From positions 1 through 64,000 of the forward strand of contig DAOWGI010000004.1 of NCBI GenBank assembly GCA_030637655.1: 64,000 nucleotides of DNA, read 5' to 3'. Positions 1 through 29,761 of this stretch are shown piece after piece (position 1 is the stretch's first letter; each line of letters begins with the position of its first letter). The position numbers were made by a program, and so were the translations under genes. The notes under the pieces are model-generated. The model did no database searches and had not been told where the DNA came from. It saw only the letters and a list, made by a program, of their open reading frames with translations. Source of the stretch: a candidate division FCPU426 bacterium. Lineage in GTDB: Bacteria; Oederibacteriota; JAAXVQ01; JAUVAV01.

Positions 1-193
1 CTATGGGATGATGAATACCACCATAGGCAATCAAGCTACCAATTGTCTGCTGCCTTTAGGCCCGGCAGCATTTAATTTAAAACTCGGTAATACAGTTATC
101 TTCCATCAGCGCTGCCCGGAGATGACAGTAAGATTAATCGCTCATTTTGGACTTGCGTCAGCGAATAAAAGGTTGGTGGCTGATGGACGGTAA
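1..193 (+). CDS. 3' end of an upstream gene (partial), possibly the C-terminus of a beta-helix protein of an eCIS-type locus
   Basis: Frame is open from position 2 to TAA at 191-193 (YGMMNTTIGNQATNCLL...). The family guess rests on context and my recollection of a GNQATxC-like ending. Confidence 0.35.
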   Translation, partial: YGMMNTTIGNQATNCLLPLGPAAFNLKLGNTVIFHQRCPEMTVRLIAHFGLASANKRLVADGR

Positions 194-258
194 ATAAGAA
201 ATCAATAATTTATTGAGAAAAATAGTGGATTATACCTTTATAAAATGGAGGTCAAAAC

Positions 259-1344
259 ATGAGCGCCAGAGAAACTAAAAAGACTGTAACCAACGGTGAT
301 ATTGAAAATATTGATAAAGTATTATCCCGGGGTGATGGTTTTCGGAAAATGGGCTTGGCTCAAGTGCAGCAACTGCAGACTGTCAAAAGCCGGTCCCTGG
401 AGCGGGAAAAACAACGCTTAAGTGAAAAGCTGGGCGTTGATCATCCCAGGGTCAAAGCCATTGCCGCCCGGCTGGAATTTAATAATAATCGTATGTCGGT
501 TTTGAAAAAAGAAATCACCAAGCTGGATATCAAAGTTGCTGATGTTGACCGGAACACAGTCATGATCCATGGCCGGATACTGGATAAGCATCAACAACCG
601 CTGCCAGGATTAACCGCGGCCCTGGCTGATGAAAAGGGTAAATGGATCCGTGCCTATGGCTACAGCAGCAGTGATGAGAAAGGCTATTTTAGTATAAAAG
701 TTGCACCGGACCAAACAGAAAAAGAAGATGTTATTGAAACTGTTTATTTATTGGTAACTGATAGAGCGCAAAAAGTATTATATCTGGATAAAGCCGGCAT
801 TGTGCTGGATGTCGGCAGAATTCATTATAGAGAAGTGGTACTTAAAAAAATGATTGCGCCCACTCCGCCGGCTGGTGATCATGAAAATGTTATTCTTGAT
901 CCTGATGTCTGGAAAGTTGTAGGACGCCTACGCAACCGCAAACAGGAACCATTGCGTCAAGTAGAGGTCAGTCTATATGATAAAGATCAAAAATATGATG
1001 ATCTCCTGAAATCAACCACGACAAATGATCAGGGTGAATTTGAACTGATTTACCGAACGGAAGATTTTAAAGAAGGGGCCGATAGCTGGCCGGACTTATA
1101 CTTAAAAGTCATGGATAAAGACGGGCAGGTTTTGCATGAGACAAAAAAAGCCGCCCGTTTTAACGCGGGACGCGTGGAACAATATGATATTACCATTGCT
1201 ACTGCTGCTAAAACCGAAGAGCCGGCAGAAAAGAAAAAGGAGGTCAAACCAAAAGTTTCCTCTGAGCAGATAAAAAAAGCCAAGCCCCCAAAAAAGATTC
1301 CTGGGAGTGAGAAAAAAAATATCAAGAAGCGGCCCGGGAAGTAA
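259..1344 (+). CDS. Hypothetical protein: N-terminal coiled coil, two carboxypeptidase-regulatory/transthyretin-like beta-sandwich domains, Lys-rich tail
   Basis: GGAGG RBS. Two repeats of the pattern (V/I)xGRxxDxxQxPLxxxxxxLxDxD...xxxDxxGxFxI (HGRILDKHQQPL..SDEKGYFSI; VGRLRNRKQEPL..TNDQGEFEL..PDLYLKV). Confidence 0.65.
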   Translation: MSARETKKTVTNGDIENIDKVLSRGDGFRKMGLAQVQQLQTVKSRSLEREKQRLSEKLGVDHPRVKAIAARLEFNNNRMSVLKKEITKLDIKVADVDRNTVMIHGRILDKHQQPLPGLTAALADEKGKWIRAYGYSSSDEKGYFSIKVAPDQTEKEDVIETVYLLVTDRAQKVLYLDKAGIVLDVGRIHYREVVLKKMIAPTPPAGDHENVILDPDVWKVVGRLRNRKQEPLRQVEVSLYDKDQKYDDLLKSTTTNDQGEFELIYRTEDFKEGADSWPDLYLKVMDKDGQVLHETKKAARFNAGRVEQYDITIATAAKTEEPAEKKKEVKPKVSSEQIKKAKPPKKIPGSEKKNIKKRPGK

Positions 1345-1349
1345 TCGCG

Positions 1350-3032
1350 ATGAAAACGCGGGCCGGTCAGCATCAATGGCTTAAGCACGCCAAGTCCATC
1401 CAGCCGGCGCTGCAAAGAGCAAGCGCCGTTCTGCCTGCGCCCTTAAGCACATCTGATGGGATATCCAAAATCTGCTCCTGTGAAGGCGATTGTCCCACTT
1501 GTCTGCCAATACCAACCAAACATGTTATAGGCCAAGAAGGCGATCCTTATGAAAAAGCAGCGGATAGGACCGCTCAAGCGGTTTTAAGTAATCCCGGCAA
1601 CATTAAACCAAAGAACTCACCAACAAATCGTTTTATGCCTGCCTCACGATATCAGGGCCAGGGAACATCGATGGCTGCTAATGAACGGCAATATTTTGAA
1701 GATCGATTCAGGCAGGATTTTAGCCATATCCAAATTCATCGTGATGATTATGCCCGGCAATTAACCGCCGGCTTAGGCGCCCGGGCTTTTGCCTATGGTA
1801 ACCACCTGTATTTTAACAATAATGTTTATTCCCCCTTCACAGCTGAAGGGCGAAGGATTATTGCCCATGAATTGGCCCATACCAATCAGCAGACCCAAGC
1901 AGGACAAGCAAAAGCGCAATGCTGGCCGGCCTCAAATCATCAGACCATTACTAAAGAGGTGGTTAATGCCCACTTTGCCGGACAACTCAGTAGTGACGCA
2001 TTGTTAAAACTGGCTTTTTATGCCGGGCAGTTAGATCAGCGGGGATGTAATTATGTTTATTATGCCCAGGATTTTATTTTAGCCAAAACGCCGATTATCG
2101 GTCCAATCATCAAAAGTCCATCGATTCCTATTTTGTCGTTTTTCACCGCCAAACTAAGGAATTACGAAGCACCAAATCATGGAGAGGCCAACTTATACAA
2201 ATATCCTGGTACTAAAACTGAAGAGAACAGGCAACGCATGATTGAGCATCTGGAAAAAGCCAAAAGCATGATCTCTAAAAACGGGCTTACCAAACAGGCC
2301 ATGGTGTATTGGGGCATGGCCTTACATGCTGGTCAGGACCGGGGGTCCCATCAGGAAGGCAGCAAAGGCAAAGGCCATGATCGTAAAAAGGATGATGCCG
2401 GCAATCCCTGGAATTGTGATAGTCCCAAAGATAATTCCGGAGGTTATATTGTTGCTAAAAATCATACCAAGACCTTAATCAGCAATATGTTGAGAGCCCT
2501 GAGTCCAACGCACCTGTCGGCATTAAAAACTGTGAACTTCGGTAGCCTGGCCGGTCAACCGGGTCCGCAGGTGGGCACCTTACCAACACCGGCTAGTCCG
2601 GGTATTCCAAAAGACCACACCTCAAGACGGCTGATGTACCTGACTATCATGAAACGCATGATTTATGGCAAGGATGATATGCCTAAACGATTATTTGGTA
2701 TGATGCCCTTAATGACCAAAGTGGGCTTAAGCATCAGCGGCAGGCATAAAAAAATGCTGACCGTTGAGCCCCAGATTGGTCTTCGGGTGATGAAGCCAAC
2801 ACCATTATCCTATCTTGATGTCTTTACCGGACCAGCAGTCGGTGTTGGCCTGGATCAAAAAAAAGGAGCCTTTGGCTGGGCTCTGTCCGCGCAACTGGGC
2901 TTGATCGGCGAACAGGATGATCTTAATCTAATGCTCAATCAATCCTGGACAACAGCCGGCAGTACCACAGTGATAGGCTTTGGCGGAACCTTTGATGAAG
3001 TCAAACTCATTGAAAAAATATTCGGGAGGTGA
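1350..3032 (+). CDS. DUF4157 (eCIS core domain) protein with Zn-dependent phospholipase C/S1-P1 nuclease-like cargo and beta-rich C-terminus
   Basis: CSCEGDCPTC leader; DPYEKAAD; FEDRFRQDFSHIQIH..ARAFAYGNHLYF..GRRIIAHELAH; then W-x4-H (WPASNH), LD, NH and GMALHAGQDRGSH metal-binding motifs. Confidence 0.8.
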   Translation: MKTRAGQHQWLKHAKSIQPALQRASAVLPAPLSTSDGISKICSCEGDCPTCLPIPTKHVIGQEGDPYEKAADRTAQAVLSNPGNIKPKNSPTNRFMPASRYQGQGTSMAANERQYFEDRFRQDFSHIQIHRDDYARQLTAGLGARAFAYGNHLYFNNNVYSPFTAEGRRIIAHELAHTNQQTQAGQAKAQCWPASNHQTITKEVVNAHFAGQLSSDALLKLAFYAGQLDQRGCNYVYYAQDFILAKTPIIGPIIKSPSIPILSFFTAKLRNYEAPNHGEANLYKYPGTKTEENRQRMIEHLEKAKSMISKNGLTKQAMVYWGMALHAGQDRGSHQEGSKGKGHDRKKDDAGNPWNCDSPKDNSGGYIVAKNHTKTLISNMLRALSPTHLSALKTVNFGSLAGQPGPQVGTLPTPASPGIPKDHTSRRLMYLTIMKRMIYGKDDMPKRLFGMMPLMTKVGLSISGRHKKMLTVEPQIGLRVMKPTPLSYLDVFTGPAVGVGLDQKKGAFGWALSAQLGLIGEQDDLNLMLNQSWTTAGSTTVIGFGGTFDEVKLIEKIFGR

Positions 3033-3035
3033 TTC

Positions 3036-3401
3036 ATGAAAATACGAGTACTTGAAAAACAAGCTGACAGCAAAACATCGGCTCATCACTTTCAGCCTCA
3101 GGAGAAAACAGCTTCTCCGGTCATGGAAATGATGAGTCCACCATCTCCAGATTGCCTCTATGAAAGCGATTATCCCACTTCTCTGCCAGCGCAAGCCAAG
3201 CTACAGGTTGGTCAAGCGAATGATCGCTATGAACAGGAAGCTGACCAGGTCGCTGAGTCAATCGTTGGAAACACCCACACCCAATCTGTAACACCAACCA
3301 ATAGTATATCCGCGCCGCTTATCCAAAGACAAGCGGAAGATGAGGAAGCACCATTTCCGGAAGAAGAAGAGGAGGAAGAAGAAGAGCCAGCAGAGGGGTA
3401 A
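3036..3401 (+). CDS. Truncated/degenerate DUF4157-family leader (no DUF4157 core, no cargo); possible pseudogene
   Basis: CLYESDYPTSLP aligns with CxCxGDCPTCLP of the neighbours; LQVGQANDRYEQEADQVAE; PLIQRQ followed by poly-Glu; ends at tandem TAA TAG. Confidence 0.65.
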   Translation: MKIRVLEKQADSKTSAHHFQPQEKTASPVMEMMSPPSPDCLYESDYPTSLPAQAKLQVGQANDRYEQEADQVAESIVGNTHTQSVTPTNSISAPLIQRQAEDEEAPFPEEEEEEEEEPAEG

Positions 3402-3456
3402 TAGGAAAATAAACAGCTGCTACTTTTGAAATAAAAAAATAGGCGGCCAATATAAA

Positions 3457-4743
3457 ATGAAAACAAAAGCTATTGATAATAAAAAGAGCAGTCAGCCGGA
3501 GGTTAAGAACCCGGAAGTCCAAAATACCGGGCCGGCCACGACCCTGGACATGAATAGTGGCTTGGCTAAAATATGTCCCTGCGAGGGGTCGTGTCCCCGC
3601 TGTTCATCCCTACAGACAAAAATTAAAAGTGGATCATCTAATGATTACCATGAGAAAGAGCAACTTTCCAGGTACGTGCCGGCCTACCCCAACAGTTCCG
3701 GAACAGACAAGCAACCCAGGCAGGGGTCATTTCAAGCAGTTCCGATGGGCAAAGAAAATAATAATGCTTTTTATAACGCTCTACGCGGAACGGGTATGGC
3801 GTTGACTGAAAAAGAACGGGAACAATTTGAACCACGCTTTGGGACGGATTTTAAAAATGTGCGCCTGCACAATTCACTCCGGGCGTATAAATTAGCCGAC
3901 CAAATTCACGCGCGGGCATTTACCTATAAAAACAACATTGTATTTAACCGTGGAGAATATAATACAACGTCCTATGCCGGACAAAAACTATTGGCTCATG
4001 AATTAACCCATGTTATTCAGCAAACCAATGCCGCTAATATAATGCCGGAAAAAATCAGTAGTGTTGCCGGAAACCAACAAGTAATACAGCGCGAATTTGA
4101 TCGTACCCGGTTACAAACCTACTTAAATGAAACCTATAATAGCTCAGTCATTGAAAGCCGCAGGGAATATGCCATTACCCAGTTGTTGGATCATAAGAAC
4201 GATGTACTAAGTGCTTGCCGTCAGCATGGTGTTGATAAACCTTCTTTTCCAGCTGCTGTGATTTGGCAGGAATTATATTTTAGAGGTGCTGATTTAACCA
4301 GCGGGGCACAAGATGTTTGGTCTGTATTTGGTCCCCTTGGCGGGGGTAATTGGTCATTAGGCCTTGCCCAGGTTCGACCAAGTACTGCGGCCCAGGTGAT
4401 AGGTGATATCCCGTTTAGGCCGCGATCGGAAATGGCCACGACGCAGGAAGAATATGAGGAATTACCCTGGAATTTAAGAGCAGCCTACCGTGCGTTGCTT
4501 GCCTATGATGTTAACTATAATGTTTATATTGCGGTTGGCTATTTAAAATTATTAAAGGAACGCCGCTATGGCACCAGCAGCTGGACCTCTTTAAGTGAGC
4601 CTCAATTGGAGTTGATAGCATCAGAATATAGTCATGGACCCTATCCCATGCGCCATACCACACCTAATCATAACGGAAGACAAGCCATGACGATTTGGTG
4701 GGGCGGCTGGTTCGGGACAAGTTGTGTTCAGGCAGAGTTTTAA
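3457..4743 (+). CDS. DUF4157 protein with lysozyme/lytic-transglycosylase-like cargo
   Basis: CPCEGSCPRC leader; FEPRFGTDFKNVRLH..ARAFTYKNNIVF..LLAHELTHVIQQ; after VIQR: AAVIWQE (putative catalytic Glu), SLGLAQV (GLxQ motif), YNVYIAVGYL. Confidence 0.8.
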   Translation: MKTKAIDNKKSSQPEVKNPEVQNTGPATTLDMNSGLAKICPCEGSCPRCSSLQTKIKSGSSNDYHEKEQLSRYVPAYPNSSGTDKQPRQGSFQAVPMGKENNNAFYNALRGTGMALTEKEREQFEPRFGTDFKNVRLHNSLRAYKLADQIHARAFTYKNNIVFNRGEYNTTSYAGQKLLAHELTHVIQQTNAANIMPEKISSVAGNQQVIQREFDRTRLQTYLNETYNSSVIESRREYAITQLLDHKNDVLSACRQHGVDKPSFPAAVIWQELYFRGADLTSGAQDVWSVFGPLGGGNWSLGLAQVRPSTAAQVIGDIPFRPRSEMATTQEEYEELPWNLRAAYRALLAYDVNYNVYIAVGYLKLLKERRYGTSSWTSLSEPQLELIASEYSHGPYPMRHTTPNHNGRQAMTIWWGGWFGTSCVQAEF

Positions 4744-4764
4744 AACTATTTAAAAGGTGCATCC

Positions 4765-6762
4765 ATGAAAATAAGACAAAGCCATAATCCATATCATTTA
4801 CACAAAACCATGTTTAACCCTAACCAGGGGAACCATGGACAGCATCAGGTTGCCGGCCCTTTGACTGACTTATGGGGAAGCCAAAGATATGACTGTCCTT
4901 GCGAAGGCACTTGTCCTAAATGTTTACCACTTCAAATGAAAGAAAAAAATAACACCAGGAATAATCATTTGGAAATGGAAGCCGATCATCTGGCCGCGCA
5001 ATGGACACAAGGAGAACGATCAAATTTACTAAGCACTATAGGCAACCAAGTCCATATTCATCATGATGCAACCGCTCATCAGGCCGCAGAAGGTATGCAT
5101 GCCAGAGCCTTCACCAGGGGTAAGCATATCTATTTCAATCACGGTGAATATAATCCCGGAACACCTAAAGGCCAGCAGTTGCTTGCTCATGAAATGGCCC
5201 ATGTTCATCAACAGGCAAAGCAAAAAACACCGGCCATCCAAAAAAATGACAAAGGCACAAAAAAAGAAGCCGCCCCGAATGTCACCACACTAGTGCCCTG
5301 GTCAGTGGGAACATCTGTATATTTTGATTTATTGGTTGATACATTCAGCGGACAAGTAACCGAACGTGATGTGATTAAAGATCGAATTGGCCTCAACATA
5401 TCTTTACCGGTTAAGCTGGAATTAAACTTAAATACTGATAAAGCCACTGGTACTCAGACAGTGGGCATGACACCTTATTTAAAGGTTAATAAGCAATTTG
5501 TCAAAATACCTGTTCCCGGCAATAGTTTGCCCACAATAACCTTATCAACAGGTTCTAAAGGCGAAGTCATGATTAATGGATTTAATGTGAAAAAAAATCC
5601 CAAAGGACTTATGCTCACAAAAAAAGTGACTATTCCCTGGCCTGGAAAAGATAAAGAAATAGAAATAACAGTAGGTACTATTGAAGGTATGACCACACCG
5701 GCTGCCACCACAAAATCAGGTCATTTAAAAGCACCTCAAGGTGGGTTCACTTCATTAAGACAACTGCTTCCTTTTATTATGGGCAGTCAAATCAAACTAA
5801 GTGCGCTGCTCTATGGTGAACAAACCTTTACCATAAGTCCTGGCAAAGGTGGGCAAGGATTGGCTTTAAGCGGCAAGTTGACGCTTAATATTGTATTAAA
5901 AGGAAGTGCTCATGATATTAAAGCGGATGTTTCTTTAAAACTTGGAACTAAGGAAGAGAATCCTGCAATCCCGATAGAGCAAAACGTTGTGCTTCCAATA
6001 ACCAAAACAAGCAAAGGCATTACCTTTACGTTACCGGGATTCAATAAAAAAATAGAATTGGTTCCAACCACCAAAGCCCTGAAAATGTTCGCCGGACCTT
6101 TGCAAGTCGGTGCATTGTCACCAGTTAGAAAAAGTTTCCCCGGCACACCACCATGGGTACCGAAGCCCATAACACCACCGCTTTACAGTCCCTTAAGTAT
6201 ACCCGGCAGGACAAGCATGCCTTTAGGTGGATTAAGATTTGAAGTAGACAACATGTTTTTAATGCGATCAATGATGAACGATTTACTTAGTCCCAATTCA
6301 ACCATTCTCTCAATGCTTCCAGGCAAAGATTGGAAAAAAGGATTAACAGCCACAGGAAAGCAATTGCGGCAAGCCAGTGAACATTTTGAAACTGATATGA
6401 CGGCGCTTATGTTAAATGGTGTCAAACGGTATCTTTCAATCAAACATGGATTCCAAACAAATGCGTCTTCAACCGGTCAAAAAGCATGGCTGGCACCTTC
6501 CATAGGCATAAGCGGCAACTTGCCGTTTAAACAATTAAAACTGTTTTTTTATGCAGGGGCCGGGCTGCCGATAGGAATGCATCATATTGGTAAAAAAACT
6601 GAGAAAGCCTTGAACTTGAGTTTATATACTGATGTGGCGTTATCCGGAACAGAGGATGAATGGTCAACAGCTATACGTTATCAAGTCGGCACAGGTGACG
6701 TACCTCATGCCGGTTTTTTAATGTTTGATTTCGCATTTGATGAAAGCCAATGGTTTAAATAA
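4765..6762 (+). CDS. DUF4157 protein with a large uncharacterised beta-rich C-terminal region
   Basis: CPCEGTCPKC leader; LEMEAD; VHIHHD..ARAFTRGKHIYF..LLAHEMAHVHQQ; after AIQK about 500 aa rich in T/K/G/P with alternating-hydrophobic strands. Confidence 0.8.
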   Translation: MKIRQSHNPYHLHKTMFNPNQGNHGQHQVAGPLTDLWGSQRYDCPCEGTCPKCLPLQMKEKNNTRNNHLEMEADHLAAQWTQGERSNLLSTIGNQVHIHHDATAHQAAEGMHARAFTRGKHIYFNHGEYNPGTPKGQQLLAHEMAHVHQQAKQKTPAIQKNDKGTKKEAAPNVTTLVPWSVGTSVYFDLLVDTFSGQVTERDVIKDRIGLNISLPVKLELNLNTDKATGTQTVGMTPYLKVNKQFVKIPVPGNSLPTITLSTGSKGEVMINGFNVKKNPKGLMLTKKVTIPWPGKDKEIEITVGTIEGMTTPAATTKSGHLKAPQGGFTSLRQLLPFIMGSQIKLSALLYGEQTFTISPGKGGQGLALSGKLTLNIVLKGSAHDIKADVSLKLGTKEENPAIPIEQNVVLPITKTSKGITFTLPGFNKKIELVPTTKALKMFAGPLQVGALSPVRKSFPGTPPWVPKPITPPLYSPLSIPGRTSMPLGGLRFEVDNMFLMRSMMNDLLSPNSTILSMLPGKDWKKGLTATGKQLRQASEHFETDMTALMLNGVKRYLSIKHGFQTNASSTGQKAWLAPSIGISGNLPFKQLKLFFYAGAGLPIGMHHIGKKTEKALNLSLYTDVALSGTEDEWSTAIRYQVGTGDVPHAGFLMFDFAFDESQWFK

Positions 6763-6855
6763 TATGAATAAATAACATGCCGTGCATAATGAGGCGCATA
6801 ATTTTTATATACTCAAGAAGAATGTGAGCACTAGCTCAGTGGAGGACCTAACCCT

Positions 6856-8337
6856 ATGCGCATTAAAATGGTTGCTCCAAACAAAGTTGCACCTAACGCT
6901 ATTGTTCAAAAAAATTCCTCCGTGTCCCTACAGCCCAATCAAACAGGATTAGCGCAAGATAAGCGAGTTGAACAATGCCTCTGTGATGGTCATTGTCCAC
7001 GATGTTTACCGCTACAACCAAAACGAAAAAATGAGAATCCTGGAAATGTTCCTGTCACCACTGCTGATCTAAACGTCCTAAAGCAAGGCGGAAATCCATT
7101 ACCAAAATCAGAGCAACAATTTTTTGAATCGCGTTTTGGACATGATTTTAGTGGGGTAAGAATTCACTCTGGGGCTCAGGCCAATCAGTTGGCTGAACAA
7201 TACAATGCCAAGGCCTTGACAAGTGGTAAGAATATTGTATTTAATGCCAGGGCTTATTCTCCTGGGACCAAAGCAGGCCAACGCTTGCTGGCCCATGAGT
7301 TGACTCATGTACTCCAGCAACGATCCGGGAAAAACACGCCTGAGTTGCAATGCAAATACCAATTGGAAAAAGATTTATATGACTTTGTCCAGGACCAACC
7401 ACGTTTGGCTTCCAGTAAAATAGGTTCCAGTCCGGACACATTTTATTATCCCAGCAAATATAAAAAAAACACGAAGAAAACCGCTTTTGTGGTCGCGGGG
7501 ATTCACGGCAATGAAAAGAGTGCCTGGAAATTAGGCAAGCGCGCCCAATCCAATTTGCAAGCTGGTACACCGAAACCGGATTTTCACACGATTATTATTC
7601 CGCGGGCTAACCCCACAACACAACGTTCAGCCGGAAAAGGACTTGCCTATGAAAGCGACCTTAATCGGGCGTTTGGAACCGGTTACACCAGCCCCAATCC
7701 CTATGCCGCTACCATAACCAATGTGGTCAAAGAGTTTGATCCTGAGCAGGTACTTAGCATCCATAGTATTAGCAGTTCCCAAAAGGTTGGAATTTATTTG
7801 GACCCAATTCATGCCCGTAAAAAAATGACGCCAGCCGCAATAAAAGCACTGCTGCCAAAGAACAAGGATATTAAAAAGCTATATAAGCTGCTAAAAAATA
7901 AATTGCGGGCCAAGAAAATGAATCCAAATTTAATCTGGGACCTCATGATTGACCGCTTATCTTATCCCGACATCACAACACCTTTTTTTAAAGAAATCGC
8001 CTATATTTTTAAGGATGAAAACAAAGCTGCCATGGAACTGACAGAAAAAATGATTACTGCGGTAAATCCTGCCGCGACCACAACCTTGACCCCTGGAAAT
8101 AAACCCAGCAAAGCGTTTCCGACACCACTTTATCCGGATATTTCCAAATCCGCTGCTTATAATTTATTATATCCGCAGCAACAGCAGGTCCAAAAAAAAT
8201 CAATTAGTTTAGGTGAATGGCTTTCCGGTCATGGAAAGACAGTGGTAACAATGGAATTACCCCAGTGGCAGGGGTCAAAAACCTGGGCAAAGATATTGCC
8301 TTTTTTAAAAGCCATTTGGAGGTTTCTTAAATTTTAA
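6856..8337 (+). CDS. DUF4157 protein with M14 metallocarboxypeptidase (MpaA/AstE-like) cargo
   Basis: GGAGG RBS; CLCDGHCPRC leader; FESRFGHDFSGVRIH..LLAHELTHVLQQ; then AGIHGNE (HxxE), ANP, DLNRAF, SIHS and TMELP, the M14 signature order. Confidence 0.85.
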   Translation: MRIKMVAPNKVAPNAIVQKNSSVSLQPNQTGLAQDKRVEQCLCDGHCPRCLPLQPKRKNENPGNVPVTTADLNVLKQGGNPLPKSEQQFFESRFGHDFSGVRIHSGAQANQLAEQYNAKALTSGKNIVFNARAYSPGTKAGQRLLAHELTHVLQQRSGKNTPELQCKYQLEKDLYDFVQDQPRLASSKIGSSPDTFYYPSKYKKNTKKTAFVVAGIHGNEKSAWKLGKRAQSNLQAGTPKPDFHTIIIPRANPTTQRSAGKGLAYESDLNRAFGTGYTSPNPYAATITNVVKEFDPEQVLSIHSISSSQKVGIYLDPIHARKKMTPAAIKALLPKNKDIKKLYKLLKNKLRAKKMNPNLIWDLMIDRLSYPDITTPFFKEIAYIFKDENKAAMELTEKMITAVNPAATTTLTPGNKPSKAFPTPLYPDISKSAAYNLLYPQQQQVQKKSISLGEWLSGHGKTVVTMELPQWQGSKTWAKILPFLKAIWRFLKF

Positions 8338-8576
8338 CTGGGAAAAAGGTGCCAAGCACAAATGACTTTGAATTTTATGTTCAGGCTTGATTATAAAGAA
8401 TATTCCGGTTTGAGGTCGCATTTTGCGACCACCTCTATAAGCTTAAATTTTCAGCGGCTGTCAAGGCATTGCTTTACAGAAAGCCATAAAAGCGGTACAA
8501 TCTACGCTTCATTCAGTGCAAAAGATCAATAGGCACACACTATGGGCTTGACGTTAGGTAGTGTTTTAAAGAAGAG

Positions 8577-10196
8577 ATGAACGATATGAGTTACGCAAGT
8601 GAAATCAGTAAAAGAAGGACCTTTGCCATCATCAGCCATCCGGATGCCGGGAAAACCACGCTGACGGAAAAATTTCTGCTTTTTGCCGGCGCCATTCAAA
8701 GCGCCGGGGCGGTTAAATCCAACAAGATCAAAAAAAGCACCATGTCCGATTTTATGGAAATCGAGCGCCAGCGTGGTATTTCGGTCGCCTCAGCGGTTAT
8801 GAGCTTTGAATACCGTGGTTTGAAAATAAATTTATTGGACACCCCGGGACACAAGGATTTTTCGGAAGATACCTACCGGACGCTGACGGCTGTGGACAGC
8901 GTGATACTCATTGTGGACAGCGTCAAAGGGGTTGAAGAACAAACGGAAAATTTGATGAAAGTCTGCCGGATGCGAAAAACCCCGGTGATTATTTTTATCA
9001 ACAAGCTTGATCGCGAGGGGCGCAGCTCCTTTGATTTGCTGGACGAAATTGAGAGTAAAATAGCGCTTAAGGTTCTGCCTTTGAGCTGGCCTATCAGCCG
9101 CGGCGCGGATTTCAAAGGTGTTTATAGTCTATATGAGAAAAAAATCCGGCTTTTCGATATTCATCCAACCGAGGCTGAGGACGCGATTACGATCTCTGAT
9201 TTGCACAGTGCAGAGTTGGAAAGGACAGTCGGGGAGGTGTTGGCCGGCCAATTGCGCGAGGATGTGGAATTACTTAGCGGAGTTTACGGTTTTTTTGAAA
9301 AGCAACAGTATCTGGCGGGAGAAGTGGCGCCGGTATTTTTCGGCAGCGCGCTGAACAATTTTGGTGTCAAGGAACTGCTGGATACGTTTGTTGATATCGC
9401 GCCGTTGCCCATGCCCCGCGACTCGGATCAACGCGCCATCCTGCCGGAGGAAGAGGCCTTTAGCGGGTTTGTCTTTAAAATTCACGCCAACTTGGATCTG
9501 CGCCATCGCGATCGTATCGCTTTTTTGAGAGTTTGTTCCGGAAAATTCGAACGGAACAAATTTTACCGGCACGTGCGTCTGAAAACCAATCTGCGCTTTT
9601 CTAATCCAGCCAGCTTTCTGGGGCAGAAAAAAGACGTGATTGACGAAGCCTATCCCGGTGATGTGATCGGCCTGTATGACCGTGGAAATTTTAAAATCGG
9701 CGATACTCTGACCGACGGGGCGGCATTCACGTTTCAAGGCATTCCCAGTTTTTCCCCGGAGATCTTCCGGGAACTTATCAAAACCGCCTTAACCGGCAAG
9801 CAATTGGAAAAAGGAATTAAGCATCTCACTGACGAGGGCGTGGCGCAGTTGTTCACCATGGATGACGGTCGGCGCAAGATTATCGGCACTGTAGGGCAGC
9901 TTCAATTTGAGGTTATCCAGTACCGTCTGGAACATGAGTACGGAGCCAAATGCCGGTTTGAGCCACTGGCTTTTTACAAGGCCTGCTGGATTACGTCACA
10001 CAATCTTATCCAGTGGGAAGACTTTTGCCGGTACAGATCCGACCGTATCGGTCTGGATAAAGACGGGCGTCCGGTTTTTTTCGTTGAATCGGAATGGATG
10101 CTGCATCATTATATAAAACAATATGCGGATATTGATTTTCGCCTAACCTCAGAGATCAAGGCCGTGCCTCCGGCAAAAGAGACTGCGATGGCGTAA
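8577..10196 (+). CDS. prfC: Peptide chain release factor 3
   Basis: [56 protein letters not shown]. Confidence 0.97.
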
Positions 10197-10242
10197 GGCC
10201 GTGGGGACGTGGATAGGGATATGTCAGTGAACCAATGGAAAG

Positions 10243-10344
10243 AAAATTAACCGCCGATGAACGCGGATAGACGCAGATATTTATAGCTTAAGAGATAAAA
10301 AGAATTTAATCTGTATTTATCGGCGTTCATCGGCGGTTAATTTT
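10243..10344. repeat. Long imperfect palindrome (REP-like element or terminator downstream of prfC)
   Basis: aaaattaaccgccgatgaacgc...gcgttcatcggcggttaatttt inverted arms. Confidence 0.75.
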
Positions 10345-10367
10345 GGTTCCGGTTTATCCGAATTAGG
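10341..10367. repeat. Short dispersed repeat; inverted copy at 54296-54322
   Basis: ttttggttccggtttatccgaattagg versus the reverse complement of ttaacccggacaagccggaaccaaaa. Confidence 0.55.
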
Positions 10368-10412
10368 TTTTTTCCGCTTCACTGACATGATGCTCCTTTC
10401 TGTTAATCCATC

Positions 10413-10442
10413 TTGACACCCAATACTCATCGGTGGTACCAT
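10413..10442 (+). promoter_or_regulatory. Putative sigma70 promoter for the ubiA-GT operon
   Basis: TTGACA-N18-TACCAT with TG just upstream of the -10 box. Confidence 0.5.
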
Positions 10443-10485
10443 TTTTCCAACATCTCCATAATAAACTTATTCTACAAGGAAAATC

Positions 10486-11358
10486 ATGAAGCAGCTGACT
10501 GCGGTTCTTCAATTGATACGGCCCAAGCAGTGGACCAAGAATTTGGTGGTCTTTGCCGGGTTGATGTTTACCGGCAGTTTTTTTAATCTTGAGCTTTTTC
10601 TGCGTGTTTCGCAGGCTTTTGTGATCTTCTGTCTGGCAGCCGGCGCGATCTATATTTTAAATGATATAAAGGATACAGAGAGTGACCAACAACATCCGGA
10701 AAAGAAAAAACGGCCTTTAGCTGCTAAAAAGATCAAGCCCCGGACCGCACTGATTGTCTCTATGTTCTTATTGCTTGTGAGCTTGGGCTGGAGTTTTCTA
10801 ATCGCGCCGATCTTTTTCTACTCAGTACTGGGGTATATTCTGCTCAATTTTGCTTATACTTGGGGCTTGAAAAACCATGTAATTTTAGATGTGTTTATCG
10901 TGACCTGCGGTTTTGTAATCCGCGCGGCAGCCGGTGCCTGGATTATTGAGGCGCCCATCTCGCCCTGGCTCTTGATCGTGACCACCTTGCTGGCGCTCTT
11001 TCTGGGTTTCGCCAAACGCCGGCACGAGTTGATCACCATGGGCGATCATGCGACCAAGCATCGGAAATCTTTGGGCGAGTACTCGCCGGAATTATTGGAT
11101 CAGTTCATGAGTGTGGTGGCCTCATCCACCATTATCGCGTACTCTTTGTATGCCTTTACCTCAACCACTGCGCAAGAGTACCACTATTTGATGCTTACTA
11201 TTCCGTTTGTGATCTACGGAATTCTGCGTTATCTGTATCTGGTGTATCAACGCAATCTGGGCGGCGCGCCGGAATTGATTTTGTTACGGGACAAACCCTT
11301 GATAACTGTCATTTTGCTCTGGGTACTGACAGTGGGTTTTATTATTCACTTAGGATAG
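10486..11358 (+). CDS. Decaprenyl-phosphate phosphoribosyltransferase (UbiA prenyltransferase family)
   Basis: LIRPKQWTKNLVVF, YILNDIKDxxxDxxHPEKKKRPLA, FAKRRHEL, TIPFVIYGILRYL; multiple TM segments. Confidence 0.9.
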   Translation: MKQLTAVLQLIRPKQWTKNLVVFAGLMFTGSFFNLELFLRVSQAFVIFCLAAGAIYILNDIKDTESDQQHPEKKKRPLAAKKIKPRTALIVSMFLLLVSLGWSFLIAPIFFYSVLGYILLNFAYTWGLKNHVILDVFIVTCGFVIRAAAGAWIIEAPISPWLLIVTTLLALFLGFAKRRHELITMGDHATKHRKSLGEYSPELLDQFMSVVASSTIIAYSLYAFTSTTAQEYHYLMLTIPFVIYGILRYLYLVYQRNLGGAPELILLRDKPLITVILLWVLTVGFIIHLG

Positions 11359-11361
11359 GAT

Positions 11362-14300
11362 ATGAAGAAGACAAAAAAACCAACTTCCCAGCTAAGCACC
11401 AAAAAGACCGGAAAAAAAACTAAAAAAAAAGCGGTACTCTTAAAACCTGTGGCGAAAAAAGCAGTTAAAAAAACCATAGTAAAAGGCAAGGTCACGGTAA
11501 AAAAAGGGATTACTTTTCGCACCCCAATTAAAAAAACCAAAGTGGCCGGCAAAACTAAACGTCTGTCCATACGCAGGCCGAAGGCCGAATCCGGTCTGAG
11601 CCGGTGGTTGAAGGAACAATGGCAGGCACTGAAAAATTTTGCGCAGCGCGAACCGGAAAGTGCCTGGTTTAGCGCTGTACTGCTGGCGGCCATGATTCTG
11701 CGCTTTATACAGCCGGATTGGTATATTGAGCGGCAGTTTCATCCGGATGAACGCTGGATTTTTGGTGTGGTCAGCCAACTCTCCTATCCGCAAGCGCCCA
11801 TTGGTCTGCAGTATGGCACTTTTCCCTTGTACTTGCTGGCTCTGATCAAAGATTTTGTGCTCATGATCGCGACCATGTTCGGTCACTTTGATGCGAATCG
11901 TTTTGTGATTGCGGGCGGCCGCGTGCTGTCCGGTTGTTTTGATCTGGTCACAGTCTTCTTTACGTATCTGATCGGACGACGTCTGGTCGCGGGCAGCATG
12001 GGCCGGAAGGTCGGTCTGCTGGCAGCGCTCTTTTTGACCTTCACGGTTTTAAATATTCAGATGGCGCATTACTTTGTGGTGGACGTACCGCTCGGCATGC
12101 TGGTCGCGGCTACGCTCTATTTTTCCATAGGTATTGCACAAACCCAAAGGCGTCTGGAATATATTTTGGCCGGGTTAAGTATTGGTCTGGCCATGGCCAC
12201 CAAGACTTCGGCCGCGCCCCTGGCAGTAGGAGTGGGTATCGCGCACCTGATTGGAATGAGTCAGGTGAAGCCGGGTGAGCGCAGGCGCCTGTGGCAGGAT
12301 TTTGGTCTGGCAATTGGCGTGTCCATAATTGCTTTCTTAGCCGCCATGCCGCACGCGATTCTGGATTGGGACAAATTTTGGAGCAATCAGAATGAGCAGA
12401 GCCGCATCCTGGTTACGGGCGCGGCGGATGTGCCGTACAACCGCCAATATCTGCATACTACGCCTTACTTGTATTACTTTAAAAATTTAATCCAATACAC
12501 CATGGGCCATTTTTTGGGCCTGCTCTCTATACTCACCTTTATTGGTTATCCGATTCTGGGACTGGTGGGTGTAGGCAAGTTCGGCATAAAGCAGCAGTGG
12601 AAAAAAGCGCTCAATAGCATCCAAGCCAATGCCGGTCTCTGGATTATTTTAAGTTATGCTTTGGTTTACTTTTGTGTTGTGGGCACCTCGTTTGCCAAAT
12701 TCAATCGCTATATGTTGCCGCTCACTCCGATATTCTGTTTGCTGGCAGCGCATGCGTTGGTCCGGCTTAAGGCCAAGGTCACGATGGGCTGGCCTAAAAA
12801 GGCGGTTGCCGTTTTCATTGTTCTGGTGGTGGGTGGAACTGTCTTGTGGAGTCTGGCGTTTGTTTCCATTTATCAACGCGAGCATCCCTGGATTGCGGCC
12901 AGCCGTTGGATTCAGGAAGAGTTGCCGGCTGAGACATTGGAAAATGGGCGCAGGCACAACACCGCGATTTTAAATGAAGAGTGGGGCGATGATCTGCCCA
13001 CGCATGTGCAGGGCATTCATCCCAAACGCTTCCGCCTGAACAAGTTCTCTGTGCAAGAGCCGGACAATCCGCGCAAGCGTCAAATGATAATTGATATGCT
13101 GCCCAAAAATGATCTGATTGTCATGGCTGACACGCGTGCGCATGTTGTGTACCGCAGACTGACGGAACGCTATCCGATCAATGCGGCTTATTATGAATTG
13201 ATGTTTGAGGAGAAGCTGGGTTACAAACTGGCAGCTGAGTTTAAAAATTATCCGGGTATTTTTGGTTTAGTGTTTCCGGATGATAAGGCGGACGAGAGTT
13301 TTACTTTGTATGATCATCCGCATGTATATCTCTTTCAGCGCCAAATCCCCACGCTCTCGATCGCGGAAATAACCCGGCGTCTGGATCAGCGGACCGCGAA
13401 AATCAAAGCACGCGGCGCGCAATTTAAAAAAGCGGCGCCCAAAAAAGCGTTACCGGATAAACCAAAGCTTCAGGCCACCCCCTTGCCCACGGTGGTGAAT
13501 AAAAATATTGGCAAGACCAAGGGCAGACCTAAGTTTATCTTAGGCAAGCTTAATGGCTTCACGGCTGCCGCGGCCTGGATCTTGCTTCTTGAGATTATTG
13601 GTTTATTGACCATTCCTTTATGTTTGAGTCTGTTTCCACGTTTGCCGGATTCCGGGGTGGCGCTCTCTAAGATTATTGGCACACTGATTTTAGCCTGGAC
13701 CACCTGGTTTCTTGTATCTGCCGGAATTTTTGAGCACCGGCAAAGTACCACCCTGCTCATACTTGTGATCTTAGGCGGTATTTCGGTGTATTGGGCTTTA
13801 AAGCGCAGGACGGAAATTGAGGAGTTTATCGCGCAACGCGGCAAGCTGTGGTTAAGCGCAGAGATTGTTTTTTTGGTGGCCTTTGTCGGGTATCTGCTGA
13901 CCAAACTCTACAATCCGGATATTAACAATCCTTTTGGTCAGGGCTACAATGGCGGCGGAGAACCCATGGGCATCAGTTTCTTCAGCGCGGTTTTTTACAG
14001 TGTGCATTTCCCGCCGTATGATCCCTGGCTCTCCGGGTATTCGATCAATTACTATTACTATGGCCAGGTTATTTTAGGTGTGCTGGCCAAACTGATTGGT
14101 GTGACCCCAAAGTGGTCCTATCAAATTTGTATCTCCTTGTTGTTTGCCCTTACCCTAACCGGGGTGTATGGTCTGGGTTTTGGCCTGACCGGCAAACGGC
14201 GCTGGGGTATTGTGGCCGCTATTGCGGCCGGCATGCTGGGTAATCTGCATACCTTTTTTTATATTCTGGAACCAATGAACCGAGGTATGAATTGGAATGA

Positions 14301-28054: not shown

Positions 28055-29761
28055 ATGCGACCTGCTATTGTTGCCGGACTGTTATTGCTGCAAGCGGTTA
28101 TGGCTTTTTTTGCCTGGACCAATCCGGTGCTTCCGGATTCCAATGTGTTTTCCGCCTTACTTATTTTTCTGGTACCGATTCCTACCTTTCTCATTGGCTT
28201 TGCGTACGCGCAAACCTCTGGAAATAAATTGTTCGTACTGTGCGGTATAAGCGGGGTTGCCACCTTTTTGCCACCTTCGTTTATGCTCCTGCAGATTGAG
28301 CATTTTGCCTTGATCGGAGCTTTGTTGCTGCTTTTAACCGGCGTCATCCTTTTTCTCTTGTATGGTTTTTGTTATAGCATGTTTTTTCGGTATCTGTATC
28401 TCCGCTATCGTTGGGCCACGCTGTTGCTGCTGCCTGCCATTATTACGGGATTTGAGTTTATACGCATTGCCTTTGCTCCTTACTTTTGGCTGATACCGGC
28501 ACCCAGCCGGATGTTTGCTCATCCGTTGGTTGGAATACTACCGCTTATTCAGATGTCCTCGTTTACCGGTATTTTAGGACCTGATTTTTTAGTCTGTTTT
28601 GTGGCAGTGGTTATGGCTTTTATGCTCTGGGAATATGTGTTGCGCCGGCCCGCTGTTCAGGCCCGGATCCAATTGGAACAGGCCGGGCAGCCCTTGTCCG
28701 GAATTTCATTGCAAAGAGCTTGGAAAACCGGATTTCTGATAAGCGGTATGCTGTTGGTGTTTGGCATCCTGGGAAATATTGACGCAGCGCTGGTTGCGAA
28801 AAAACAGGAGCAGAGCCAACGGATACTGCGTCCGGCCCTGCTGCAAGCCAATTTTAATCCTTCAGGGATGGCCACCTGGGATAGGAACGCAGAAATCGGT
28901 TCGATTCTGGTGTACAGACAGATGATTCTGGAAGCTGCGGAGAAACAGGCGGATTTTCTGGTGTTTACGGAAAATGCGTTGCCCATGACATTGCCGAAAT
29001 GCAAACAGCTCTGGGAGGATATACGATCCGTGTTTGCTGAGGTTCAATTGCCGGCCTTGATCGGAGCCATTACTGTCGCGGATCCCAAACACTCGCTGAA
29101 CATGTGGTATCATGTCAAACCGGACGGCAAGGTGGCCAAGTATTATATTAAACGGTCCCTGGTCCCGTTTGGGGAATACCTTCCCCTGCGCTGGTTGATA
29201 GATCCGGTGCTAGGCGGTATAAATTTCATGTTTAACAAATCGTATGCCATATTAAAAATCACAGCCATTAGCACAGACAACTACGATCTGGTGCGTGGTA
29301 AAAAAGCGGAAGTCTTTACCATTGGTCCCAAGCAGGAAAAAGTATTTCTCGCTGTGTGCGATGAAGCCAAGTATCCTCGGTTTTTCCGGGAAGGGGTCCG
29401 CTTGGGAGGAGAGGCCGTATTTTCGTTGGGCGCGTCCAATTGGTTTCCCTCGCCGGCCTATTTTAATAAACAACTGCAGAATTGCGCTTTCCGGGCAGTG
29501 GAATCGCGGCGCTGGATTGCGCATCTGTCCAGCATGGGCGGCTCGGCACAGGTGGATGCCTTGGGCCAAGTGCGTAAACGCTCGGTGTATAAAAAGCGTT
29601 CGGTTTTGGTTGAACCGATACCCGGTTTGCAGGGACGCTCATTTTACATGCGCTGTGGTGATATTTTTGGGTGGTCCTGTTTATTGTTCGCGCTTTTAGG
29701 TTATGGCTGGATTCTACGGGAACATTTTCAGCAGTATCGGGCCGGTCAGTCCAAAATCTGA
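28055..29761 (+). CDS. lnt: Apolipoprotein N-acyltransferase-like protein (membrane domain + nitrilase domain)
   Basis: IQMSSFTG, LLQAN, FTENA (Glu), KRSLVPFGEY (Lys), AVCDE (Cys), NWF, RAVE, FYMRCGD. Confidence 0.85.
   Translation: MRPAIVAGLLLLQAVMAFFAWTNPVLPDSNVFSALLIFLVPIPTFLIGFAYAQTSGNKLFVLCGISGVATFLPPSFMLLQIEHFALIGALLLLLTGVILFLLYGFCYSMFFRYLYLRYRWATLLLLPAIITGFEFIRIAFAPYFWLIPAPSRMFAHPLVGILPLIQMSSFTGILGPDFLVCFVAVVMAFMLWEYVLRRPAVQARIQLEQAGQPLSGISLQRAWKTGFLISGMLLVFGILGNIDAALVAKKQEQSQRILRPALLQANFNPSGMATWDRNAEIGSILVYRQMILEAAEKQADFLVFTENALPMTLPKCKQLWEDIRSVFAEVQLPALIGAITVADPKHSLNMWYHVKPDGKVAKYYIKRSLVPFGEYLPLRWLIDPVLGGINFMFNKSYAILKITAISTDNYDLVRGKKAEVFTIGPKQEKVFLAVCDEAKYPRFFREGVRLGGEAVFSLGASNWFPSPAYFNKQLQNCAFRAVESRRWIAHLSSMGGSAQVDALGQVRKRSVYKKRSVLVEPIPGLQGRSFYMRCGDIFGWSCLLFALLGYGWILREHFQQYRAGQSKI

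Follow-up and report, generated by a model that had tools for sequence, protein, structure and literature searches.

A row of genes encoding DUF4157 domains, each followed by a different C-terminal part, lies at the very beginning of a contig from an uncultured cold-seep bacterium of a candidate phylum. What do these genes encode, and which secretion machine, if any, do their products serve? We addressed these questions in the window, that is, the whole 64,000-nt stretch that was analyzed, whose position 1 is the start of the contig. The gene-set type itself has been known since 2012, and its N-terminal DUF4157, variable toxins, and absent immunity genes were already described (Zhang 2012, Geller 2021, and the AlgoCIS work). 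Positions 1-8337 very probably represent the 3' end of a PVC-type extracellular contractile injection system (eCIS) operon, whose genes for sheath, tube, baseplate, and ATPase were cut off by the contig break. The window would retain the end of a DUF6519/beta-helix gene, a transthyretin-like (TTR-like) gene, four cargo genes, and one decayed leader remnant.

The array and its shared N-terminal plan

Based on the list of open reading frames, four co-oriented DUF4157 genes lie on the + strand, namely cargo 1 (1350..3032, 560 aa), cargo 2 (3457..4743, 428 aa), cargo 3 (4765..6762, 665 aa), and cargo 4 (6856..8337, 493 aa). None of the four long frames is interrupted, and each has a ribosome-binding site. 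The gaps between genes in the array measure 3 to 93 nt, in keeping with the tight packing noted in a preliminary description of this DNA. That description was right about the four-gene set and its shared plan, but its start, its statement on small ORFs, its reading of the GC content, and most of its cargo labels need revision. Its array start at 259 takes in the gene at 259..1344, which is transthyretin-like and lacks DUF4157, and its absence of small partner ORFs overlooks a 121-aa ORF at 3036..3401 (+ strand) inside the array. At 44.1% GC, the array is indeed below the 49.0% of prfC and the 47.5% found elsewhere in the window, but it is normal for the genome (45.05%). Since 30% of the 7-kb windows of the genome are as GC-poor or poorer, the composition is no sign of foreign origin.

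All four genes match PF13699 (DUF4157/eCIS_core) above the cut-off, with E values of 3.4e-20 to 4e-31 and the domain N-terminal to the toxin part, as had been proposed for every member. The match covers residues 110-184, 116-192, and 81-158 in cargos 1, 2, and 4, respectively, and is partial in cargo 3 (residues 94-153). Among the 99 genomes of the phylum, 6 have a PF13699 match. Preceding the domain is a hydrophilic, basic leader of approximately 60-70 residues, which begins with MKTR, MKTK, MKIR, and MRIK in cargos 1-4 and carries a net charge of +2 to +5 over its first 40 residues. The leader contains a four-cysteine motif, CxC[ED]GxCPxC, at residues 42-51, 40-49, 44-53, and 41-50 (nt 1473-1502, 3574-3603, 4894-4923, and 6976-7005). 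An LQxK motif follows, and three of the four leaders also contain an ExEAD-like motif. The HExxH motif reads HELAH (nt 1866-1880), HELTH, HEMAH, and HELTH, and the xQ(C/R/K) junction reads AQC (nt 1914-1922), IQR (nt 4084-4092), IQK (nt 5236-5244), and LQC (nt 7345-7353). In this order, each cargo is built of a basic leader, a zincin-like DUF4157 domain, a short linker with xQ(C/R/K) at its end, and a predicted toxin domain that is specific to the gene. No signal peptide was seen in any of the four; as judged by hydropathy only, the first 70 residues are without a hydrophobic segment (maximum Kyte-Doolittle value over 19 residues, ≤0.76).

The N-terminal modules are 29-42% identical to one another (E 3e-20 to 4e-30), which bears out the shared leader proposed earlier. 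The C-terminal parts are as unrelated as had been described: comparing cargo against cargo revealed no similar pair among the four, the best E value being 1.6. At the Cys4, HExxH, and junction motifs, the DNA of the copies is only 60-79% identical, yet all four genes keep the motifs. The Cys motif is also present in 7 of 7 PF13699 genes in the same genome and in 17 of 20 DUF4157 domains examined there and in G022, G023, G024, and G028; the three domains lacking it each belong to a gene located among eCIS structural genes. In cargos 1 and 3, the stretch from HExxH to the junction is devoid of Glu. Since the HExxHxxQ-E pattern of Zhang may put the third zinc ligand there, the zincin of these two cargos may be inactive.

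The ORF at 3036..3401 has a GGGAGG ribosome-binding site, and its product aligns with the leaders. In place of an intact Cys motif it has the decayed CLYESDYPTS (nt 3153-3182), and it ends in a poly-Glu tract, with neither DUF4157 nor any Pfam match. It shows 47% identity over 90 aa to the intact, Cys-bearing leader of P0009, a homolog of cargo 1 that is 88% identical over the cargo part that P0009 covers. This ORF is most likely a displaced, decayed leader remnant.

The predicted toxin parts of the four cargos

Judged by sequence, all but one of the toxin domains fall into families that are rare and lack annotation. The toxin parts of cargos 1, 2, and 3 yielded no Pfam match even at E up to 10.

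The cargo 1 family comprises only 12 proteins, the product in the window included, and all carry PF13699. Among homologs that are 32-68% identical, 60 columns are invariant. The residues W192, H197, D229, H277, E279, H326, D330, H334, E336, H343, and D357 do not vary in any of 10 sequences, and Trp192 directly follows the AQC junction. The toxin part is rich in His and Asp, and its C-terminal region is beta-strand-like. It has an HxxxDxxxH motif (H326, D330, H334) along with other His and acidic residues that never vary, a set resembling the one listed for Tox-HET-C. Moreover, it opens with W-x4-H, similar to the mature end of an S1-P1 nuclease of G024 (WAPIGH, following AYG). By this motif resemblance and by comparison with known structures, the invariant His, Asp, and Glu residues may be equivalent to the metal ligands of the Zn-dependent PLC/S1-P1/Het-C proteins, and cargo 1 is possibly a PLC/S1-P1/Het-C-like metal hydrolase. 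Cargo 1 does not match PF07217 or PF02265 at E up to 10, and PF00882 has no match in G000, G023, or G024. A Pfam scan of 10 family members retrieved none of the Zn-dependent PLC, S1-P1, and Het-C profiles, and hhalign comparisons gave E values of 0.23, 0.12, and 0.31. The PLC/S1-P1 label given earlier is therefore one of motifs, which the profile comparisons do not back.

The cargo 2 family counts four proteins, the product in the window among them. Its toxin part contains SLT-like motifs (QELYF ... GLAQVRPSTA), for which the corresponding fold is putative. There is no match to PF01464 at E up to 1, and nothing was found in Pfam, PHROGs, or PDB. Against eight SLT domains, hhalign reported a non-significant E value of 0.059 over 76 columns, versus 0.072 for an unrelated control query; within that non-significant alignment, the E, GLxQ..P.TA, and helix motifs are in register. 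The lysozyme-like label proposed before thus likewise comes down to motifs, with no profile match and an alignment no better than the control. For cargo 3, the toxin part of 506 aa has a single homolog, 67% identical, on G024:C166. Searches of PDB, PHROGs, and plasmids returned no match, and it falls in no known family.

Cargo 4 matches PF24827 at 29.0 bits (cut-off 25). When it is aligned to the MpaA structure 4axv, HGNE falls on HGDE, DLNRAF on DLNRAF, and MELP on VELP; in other words, the HxxE zinc motif, DLNRAF, and the catalytic Glu in ELP correspond to those of MpaA and the AstE-AspA branch of M14. The second zinc-binding His (IHS) was placed by eye only. By homology, cargo 4 is a predicted M14-type zinc peptidase of the MpaA/AstE-AspA kind. 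It differs from MpaA in being fused to an eCIS leader, and it was rejected as an MpaA equivalog, with 25.6 bits against the NCBIfam MpaA model (E 5.5e-6) and a cut-off of 157. Among the labels given to the cargos earlier, M14 has database support, but PLC-like and lysozyme-like are without profile support. The earlier proposal of an attack on the membrane and two peptidoglycan bonds is not supported for the PLC/S1-P1 and lysozyme parts.

Probable connection to an eCIS operon

The window opens inside a gene. A + strand frame at 2..193, open from the first bases, represents the last 64 codons of a DUF6519/beta-helix gene whose 5' part is lost at the contig start. The frame aligns with residues 1142-1191 of a 1196-aa protein of the near-complete relative G023 (64% identity over 50 aa, E 9e-15; 55% over 64 aa in a second alignment), and that protein matches PF20129 DUF6519 and PF13229 Beta_helix. 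Based on this homology, the gene ending at 193 is predicted to be the final large gene of the eCIS with a structural or fibre-like product. Next on the + strand is the gene at 259..1344, which encodes a transthyretin-like/CarboxypepD_reg-like protein (PF01060 TTR-52, E 6.4e-9) whose N-terminus is coiled-coil and whose tail is rich in Lys. Its product is 51% identical to that of G023 at 200136-201230 (E 2e-103), and a copy on G024:C170 (46% identical) precedes a DUF4157 gene. In eCIS of this type, it is the conserved final gene ahead of the cargos.

Similarly, in G023 a DUF6519 protein, a TTR-like protein, and then three Cys-leader DUF4157 genes follow one another, and cargo 1 has an ortholog in this effector array (60% identical over the full length). 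This order closes the 3' end of a full eCIS operon, G023:C3:189724-224839, with matches to Phage_sheath_1C, Pvc16_N, AAA, gp25, Baseplate_J, DUF6519, and, weakly, CIS_tube (E 3e-4). G024:C170 has the same order of a TTR-like gene and then an effector, and G024:C3 carries the same eCIS. The synteny, together with the opening of the window in the DUF6519 3' end, supports the preliminary view of an eCIS effector set whose structural genes lie just to the left.

In the assembly of the window (91.55% complete, 120 contigs), no match was found to sheath PF04984, Baseplate_J PF04865, or gp25 PF04965. Tube PF06841 had no match there, nor in any control genome, so this result says little. Using the eCIS proteins of G023, tblastn detected no structural gene in the assembly beyond the 50-aa tail. 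In the better-assembled G023 and G024, the machine adjoins the same genes. Collectively, an eCIS machine in this organism, whose own assembly holds only the DUF6519 tail and the TTR-like gene, is supported by synteny.

The lack of any structural gene in the 91.55%-complete assembly would also be expected if the cargos were eCIS-independent toxins, the machine having been lost or never present and the DUF4157 proteins being released by, for example, lysis or an exporter that recognizes the Cys-rich leader. Three further Cys-leader DUF4157 genes do stand alone in unrelated surroundings; G028, at 89% completeness, contains a single gene of this kind and no sheath or gp25 match; and DUF4157 occurs very widely, with 63,421 representative clusters at E up to 1e-3. 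However, the first letters of the window already belong to an eCIS operon gene that the contig start cuts through, and the DNA continues past position 1 in contigs of sequencing run X3, one of which extends 148 letters beyond it. Moreover, orphan effectors distant from the operon are described as normal for eCIS (PMC11297309). Together with the synteny, these observations make independence from an eCIS improbable.

Less probable still is that the array is the remnant of a dead eCIS island, with its genes out of use. One member survives only as a leader whose Cys motif is ruined, and the cargo families are tiny (12, 4, and 2 proteins for cargos 1, 2, and 3, own product counted), as would fit such decay. 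In contrast, the four intact frames with their ribosome-binding sites, the motifs kept despite diverged DNA, and the invariant columns of the cargo 1 family speak against decay. Finally, DUF4157-like domains also occur in T6SS effectors (PMC6899460), but it is highly improbable that the cargos are effectors of a T6SS or another contact-dependent system merely sharing DUF4157, as the VgrG2b C-terminal toxin does, given that the T6SS sheath TssC/VipB (PF05943) has no match in G000, G023, or G024, that DUF4157 here is N-terminal to other domains and not the C-terminal toxin, and that the synteny is with an eCIS bearing Pvc16_N and an AAA ATPase.

Proposed route of the cargos and comparison with known systems

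For eCIS cargos, a route may be proposed by analogy with AlgoCIS, in which Cgo1 and Cgo2 are reported to fill the tube lumen (PMC8894135), and cargo loading is reported to need the NTD, with DUF4157 and the CTD dispensable (preprint 10.64898/2026.05.27.728243). Guided by its leader and helped by the AAA+ ATPase of the operon, a cargo probably enters the tube lumen, and the particle would be released and then fire into a target cell. DUF4157 may cut at the conserved junction and free the toxin, as Zhang hypothesized in 2012; in cargo 1, the toxin would then start with the invariant Trp192. The HExxH motifs are reported not to be needed for Cgo1 toxicity in AlgoCIS (PMC8894135).

The producer would most simply be protected because its toxins are made for packaging and have no export signals. 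With no signal peptide in any of the four cargos, cell-wall enzymes made in the cytoplasm could not reach the cell's own wall. The absent signal peptides would account for the lack of immunity genes more simply than zymogen packaging. Immunity genes are described as often absent alongside the N-terminal PVC-metallopeptidase, variable toxins, and proposed autoproteolytic release (PMC3482391), and Geller 2021 likewise describes them as commonly missing in this class.

The array shares with the PVC-type polymorphic toxins described by Zhang 2012 (PMC3482391) a constant N-terminal HExxH domain, variable C-terminal toxins, several members per genome, the frequent lack of immunity genes, and, as predicted by synteny, proximity to phage-tail-like secretion genes. 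In contrast, the account of the PVC-metallopeptidase given there and the passages checked for conserved cysteines and a zinc ribbon do not describe the Cys4 motif, and cargos 1, 2, and 3 lack a match to any tested Pfam model. Similar to AlgoCIS Cgo1 and Cgo2 as reported, the cargos combine a leader NTD, DUF4157, and a variable CTD, have a leader common to the paralogs of one system, and would be encoded in or after an eCIS operon. The AlgoCIS NTDs differ in being described as disordered and system-specific, and the present array has four cargos plus a remnant, with the machine absent from the assembly. [quoted passage not shown] Unlike the EATs of Geller 2021 and Danov 2024, the cargos here are known from genes alone, in an uncultured host. 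The solitary DUF4157 gene on contig C65 of the same genome has a PF20085 transglutaminase-like cargo, which resembles EAT14.

Layout of the array and its shared architecture

[quoted passage not shown] Contig C108, whose first 64 kb make up the window, belongs to a host assembly of 3.28 Mb and 120 contigs, and the cold-seep origin of this uncultured bacterium is taken from the habitat label of the sequencing runs. All genes of the array lie on the forward strand. An open frame running from the first bases to 193 is the 3' end of a DUF6519 protein gene. It is followed by a gene for a 361-aa protein (259..1344), cargo 1 (1350..3032, 560 aa), a leader-only ORF of 121 aa (3036..3401), cargo 2 (3457..4743, 428 aa), cargo 3 (4765..6762, 665 aa) and cargo 4 (6856..8337, 493 aa), while prfC begins at 8577, directly 3' of the array. 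The preliminary description started the array at 259; however, the gene at that position lacks DUF4157 and carries transthyretin-like/CarboxypepD_reg-like domains instead.

The proposal that four genes share a leader and a carrier and differ in unrelated C-termini is borne out. PF13699 (DUF4157, now named eCIS_core) is matched above the curated Pfam cut-off by all four cargo genes, with E-values from 3.4e-20 to 4e-31. Their N-terminal modules are 29–42% identical in pairs, and their C-terminal parts are mutually dissimilar (best E 1.6). Cargos 1–4 start with MKTR, MKTK, MKIR and MRIK, respectively. Each of the four then carries the motif CxC[ED]GxCPxC at residues 40–53, an LQxK-like motif three residues later, and an xQ(C/R/K) junction 12 to 25 residues past HExxH. 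DNA identity among the genes at these repeated motifs is only 60–79%, indicating that they are old paralogs. A hydropathy scan found no hydrophobic segment in the first 70 residues of the cargo proteins, so they lack a Sec signal. The array had also been described as AT-richer than the genes that follow. Its GC content of 44.1% is indeed below theirs, but it is ordinary for a genome of 45.05% (30th percentile of 7-kb windows), and a foreign origin based on GC content was therefore rejected. No Rfam families or tRNAs were found in 1–10500 / 1–12000, and promoter- and terminator-like sites at the array occur at chance level only. Downstream of prfC, a UbiA-like 290-aa gene is followed by a gene for a 1581-aa multi-pass membrane protein (11362–16107).

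The injection machine in relatives and the contig break

Profile searches of the window's own assembly (91.55% complete) matched no sheath, tube, Baseplate_J or gp25; the tube model matched none of the control genomes either, so its blank says little. Among 99 genomes of the candidate phylum, six contain PF13699. Such systems are thus rare in the phylum, to which the present array contributes an eCIS effector set encoded by an uncultured bacterium from a cold seep. One of the six is G023, a genome of the same family as the host with 98% completeness and 10 contigs. Its eCIS operon (C3:189724-224839) contains matches to Phage_sheath_1C, Pvc16_N, AAA, CIS_tube (weak), gp25 and Baseplate_J. Next in the operon come genes for a DUF6519/beta-helix protein (1196 aa) and a transthyretin-like protein (364 aa), and then three DUF4157 genes (1515, 564 and 932 aa), each with the Cys motif. 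In tblastn searches of the window's genome, the DUF6519 protein matches window 5–154 with its final 50 residues (64% identity, E 9e-15), while 259–1197 is matched by the transthyretin-like protein (51% identity), and the 564-aa effector matches 1401–3029 (60% over its full length). The structural proteins of the same operon have no tblastn counterpart elsewhere in that genome. In a second relative, G024, one contig carries this same eCIS, and another has a transthyretin-like gene followed by an effector. A T6SS sheath was not matched in the window's genome, G023 or G024.

The gene order matches the end of the G023 operon, and this synteny shows the array to be the cargo module of an eCIS operon that is truncated where the contig ends, with the machine itself not seen in the genome. 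The suggestion that the structural genes lie left of the window is accordingly supported: the G023 synteny and the DUF6519 3' end at the window start point to that position, but none of these genes is present in the host's own assembly.

Contigs of four sequencing runs (X1–X4) were compared with the region. Contigs of X1–X3 cross the left end of the window, one X3 contig extends 148 letters past window position 1, and a second strain variant occurs at window 112–441, with 28 differences in 330 letters. Furthermore, contig ends and branch points in these runs cluster at the conserved DUF4157 core (window 3733–3765, 3991–4024 and 7285–7320). The strain variant and these loose contig ends explain the assembly break at the window start. 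The branching contigs also indicate that the community holds further effector genes or alleles sharing short stretches of the core. A metagenome scan with the transthyretin-like protein yielded a single weak relative (31% identity) and no extension of the contig.

Other DUF4157 loci were observed in the relatives. G023 encodes a second, different eCIS (C3:615001-630000), whose operon includes two sheath genes and two DUF4157 genes. In a further relative, G022, an eCIS operon on contig C25 encodes a DUF4157 protein of 2188 aa that resembles the tape-measure-like Tme effectors known from Streptomyces. The Cys motif is absent from all three of these DUF4157 proteins. Additionally, the effector arrays of the relatives include genes without DUF4157: in G023, a gene of 356 aa that weakly matches the PQQ_2 beta-propeller model (194519-195589, reverse strand) lies between the 1515- and 564-aa DUF4157 genes, and in G024, two genes of 731 and 306 aa lie at C96:2013-5212 (reverse strand). 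These genes, which have no counterpart in the window, could be accessory or immunity genes.

C-terminal parts of the four cargos

Twelve proteins of the cargo-1 family were found, all fused to DUF4157, and a scan of genome contigs with the family alignment returned only the two relatives already known. Trp192, right after the junction, is invariant in the ten aligned members and is followed by His197; H326-x3-D330-x3-H334 is likewise invariant. This motif set resembles that of Tox-HET-C, which the text of Zhang 2012 (PMC3482391) relates to phospholipase C and S1-P1 nucleases and reports in fusions with the PVC metallopeptidase. Similarly, the mature chain of an S1-P1 nuclease of G024 starts with W-x4-H after its signal peptide, as cargo 1 shows W192-x4-H197 after its junction. 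In PLC/S1-P1 enzymes, the N-terminal Trp serves as a zinc ligand. The PLC/S1-P1 label given to cargo 1 in the preliminary description is in keeping with the motif resemblance, but PF00882, PF07217 and PF02265 do not match the protein, and hhalign against PLC/S1-P1/Het-C-type family members was not significant. We put the chance that cargo 1 is a putative enzyme of this type at about even.

The last ~110 residues of the cargo-1 family (about 450–560 in cargo 1; window 2700–3029) show alternating hydrophobic patterns in the family alignment, and five of the ten aligned homologs end in Phe or Trp (GVSARW twice, GVSTRF, LGGTW and INGVF). These ends resemble the C-terminal signal of outer-membrane beta-barrel proteins, and the region may be a membrane-insertion or targeting part. 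A C-terminal domain common to cargos 1 and 3 was rejected, as it reached E 0.61 only.

For cargo 2, three homologs were found, and the protein shows motifs similar to those of lytic transglycosylases. When aligned by hhalign with eight SLT domains from these genomes, the motifs fall in register, which is in keeping with its lysozyme-like label; however, the E-value of 0.059 is no better than the control, and PF01464 is unmatched. Cargo 3 has a single homolog, and no relative of known function was detected in Pfam, PDB, PHROGs or plasmids. Searches of the PDB by sequence and by profile returned nothing for cargos 1–3, PHROGs gave nothing useful for the cargos, and tblastn searches of plasmids with cargos 2 and 3 returned no match. 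The M14 label of cargo 4 holds. PF24827 is matched above its cut-off, MpaA is matched weakly, and in the alignment with MpaA (4axv), HxxE, DLNRAF and the catalytic ELP are in register; cargo 4 is, by its sequence, an M14-type peptidase. Its top PDB match, 7on7, was discarded as a repeat-protein artefact. Three of the four toxin domains come from very small, unannotated families and offer potential new antibacterial or anti-eukaryotic activities.

Leader, junction and proposed delivery

The array had been described as free of small partner ORFs, which ORF 3036..3401 contradicts: it is preceded by a good ribosome-binding site and can be aligned with the leaders. The sequence at its Cys motif is CLYESDYPTS, and the ORF ends in a poly-Glu tract before any DUF4157. 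It is most closely related to the leader of P0009, which is intact and carries the Cys motif (47% identity over 90 aa); P0009 is a cargo-1 homolog that is 88% identical over the covered part of the cargo. From the EQAAD motif onwards, P0009 matches the window's cargo 1, which has a different leader. The two resemblances together indicate that leaders are exchanged between effector genes, and the ORF is most likely a displaced leader copy left after a swap. Such an N-terminal remnant has its counterpart in classical polymorphic toxin loci, where C-terminal toxin cassettes are displaced.

The steps of loading, firing and expulsion are modeled on AlgoCIS (PMC8894135; 10.64898/2026.05.27.728243) and PVC work. 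The leader would guide the unfolded cargo into the tube lumen, aided by the AAA+ ATPase of the operon; the particle would then be released and fire, expelling the cargo into the target. The text of Zhang 2012 (PMC3482391) proposes that the DUF4157 domain frees the toxin by self-cleavage, and the conserved junction would be consistent with this. Cleavage at the junction of cargo 1 would expose Trp192. Caution is warranted because, as reported in the texts on AlgoCIS, the toxicity of Cgo1 is independent of HExxH (PMC8894135) and DUF4157 is dispensable for cargo loading (10.64898/2026.05.27.728243); moreover, the stretch from HExxH to the junction contains no Glu in cargos 1 and 3. The absence of immunity genes needs no special explanation, since it is common in the class according to the texts of Zhang 2012 (PMC3482391) and Geller 2021, and enzymes that act on the cell wall but lack export signals have no access to the wall of the cell that makes them.

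The leader motif was also followed across DUF4157 proteins, a very large group for which a search at E up to 1e-3 gives 63,421 representative clusters. Among the best 150 of these representatives, 16 (the query itself being one) contain CxC..C..C, usually 90–190 residues before an HExxH and in some cases internally, between two DUF4157 modules. In many of these 16, xQ(R/K) flanks the Cys motif and DxYExEADRVA then follows. In 128 of 291 domains, [ILVM]Q[RKC] occurs no more than 35 residues past HExxHxxxQ, compared with 201 of 1455 control windows. In the host genome and G022, G023, G024 and G028 (another relative with PF13699), 17 of 20 DUF4157 domains examined have the Cys motif. The remaining three are all encoded in other eCIS operons, amid the structural genes. 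This distribution fits a loading tag of one eCIS lineage. No description of the Cys4 motif was found in the text consulted from DUF4157 papers, Zhang 2012 (PMC3482391) among them, although figures or supplements may show it. A tentative and, in our estimate, rather improbable reading combines these features: in a subset of DUF4157 proteins, the Cys4 motif (CxCxGxCxxC) and the xQ(R/K) motifs, which often flank it and recur at the end of the DUF4157 domain, would make up an undescribed module, a small metal-binding knuckle that acts as the loading tag of one eCIS lineage and is enclosed by processing sites, and the junction cut would yield the Trp metal ligand of cargo 1, with the toxin on only after release. 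How DUF4157 cargo is recognized and processed is still open according to the texts of Geller 2021, 10.64898/2026.05.27.728243 and Danov 2024 (PMC11297309), and the Cys-bearing leader and conserved junction are concrete sites for probing both steps.

Three more Cys-leader DUF4157 genes occur in the host genome, singly among unrelated genes, at C30:24020-28546 (reverse strand), C65:19174-20586 (reverse strand) and C81:684-3095 (forward strand). The gene on C65 carries a PF20085 transglutaminase-like cargo (E 3.3e-9), and that on C30 (about 1500 aa) adjoins a reverse-transcriptase-like fragment (28785–29231).
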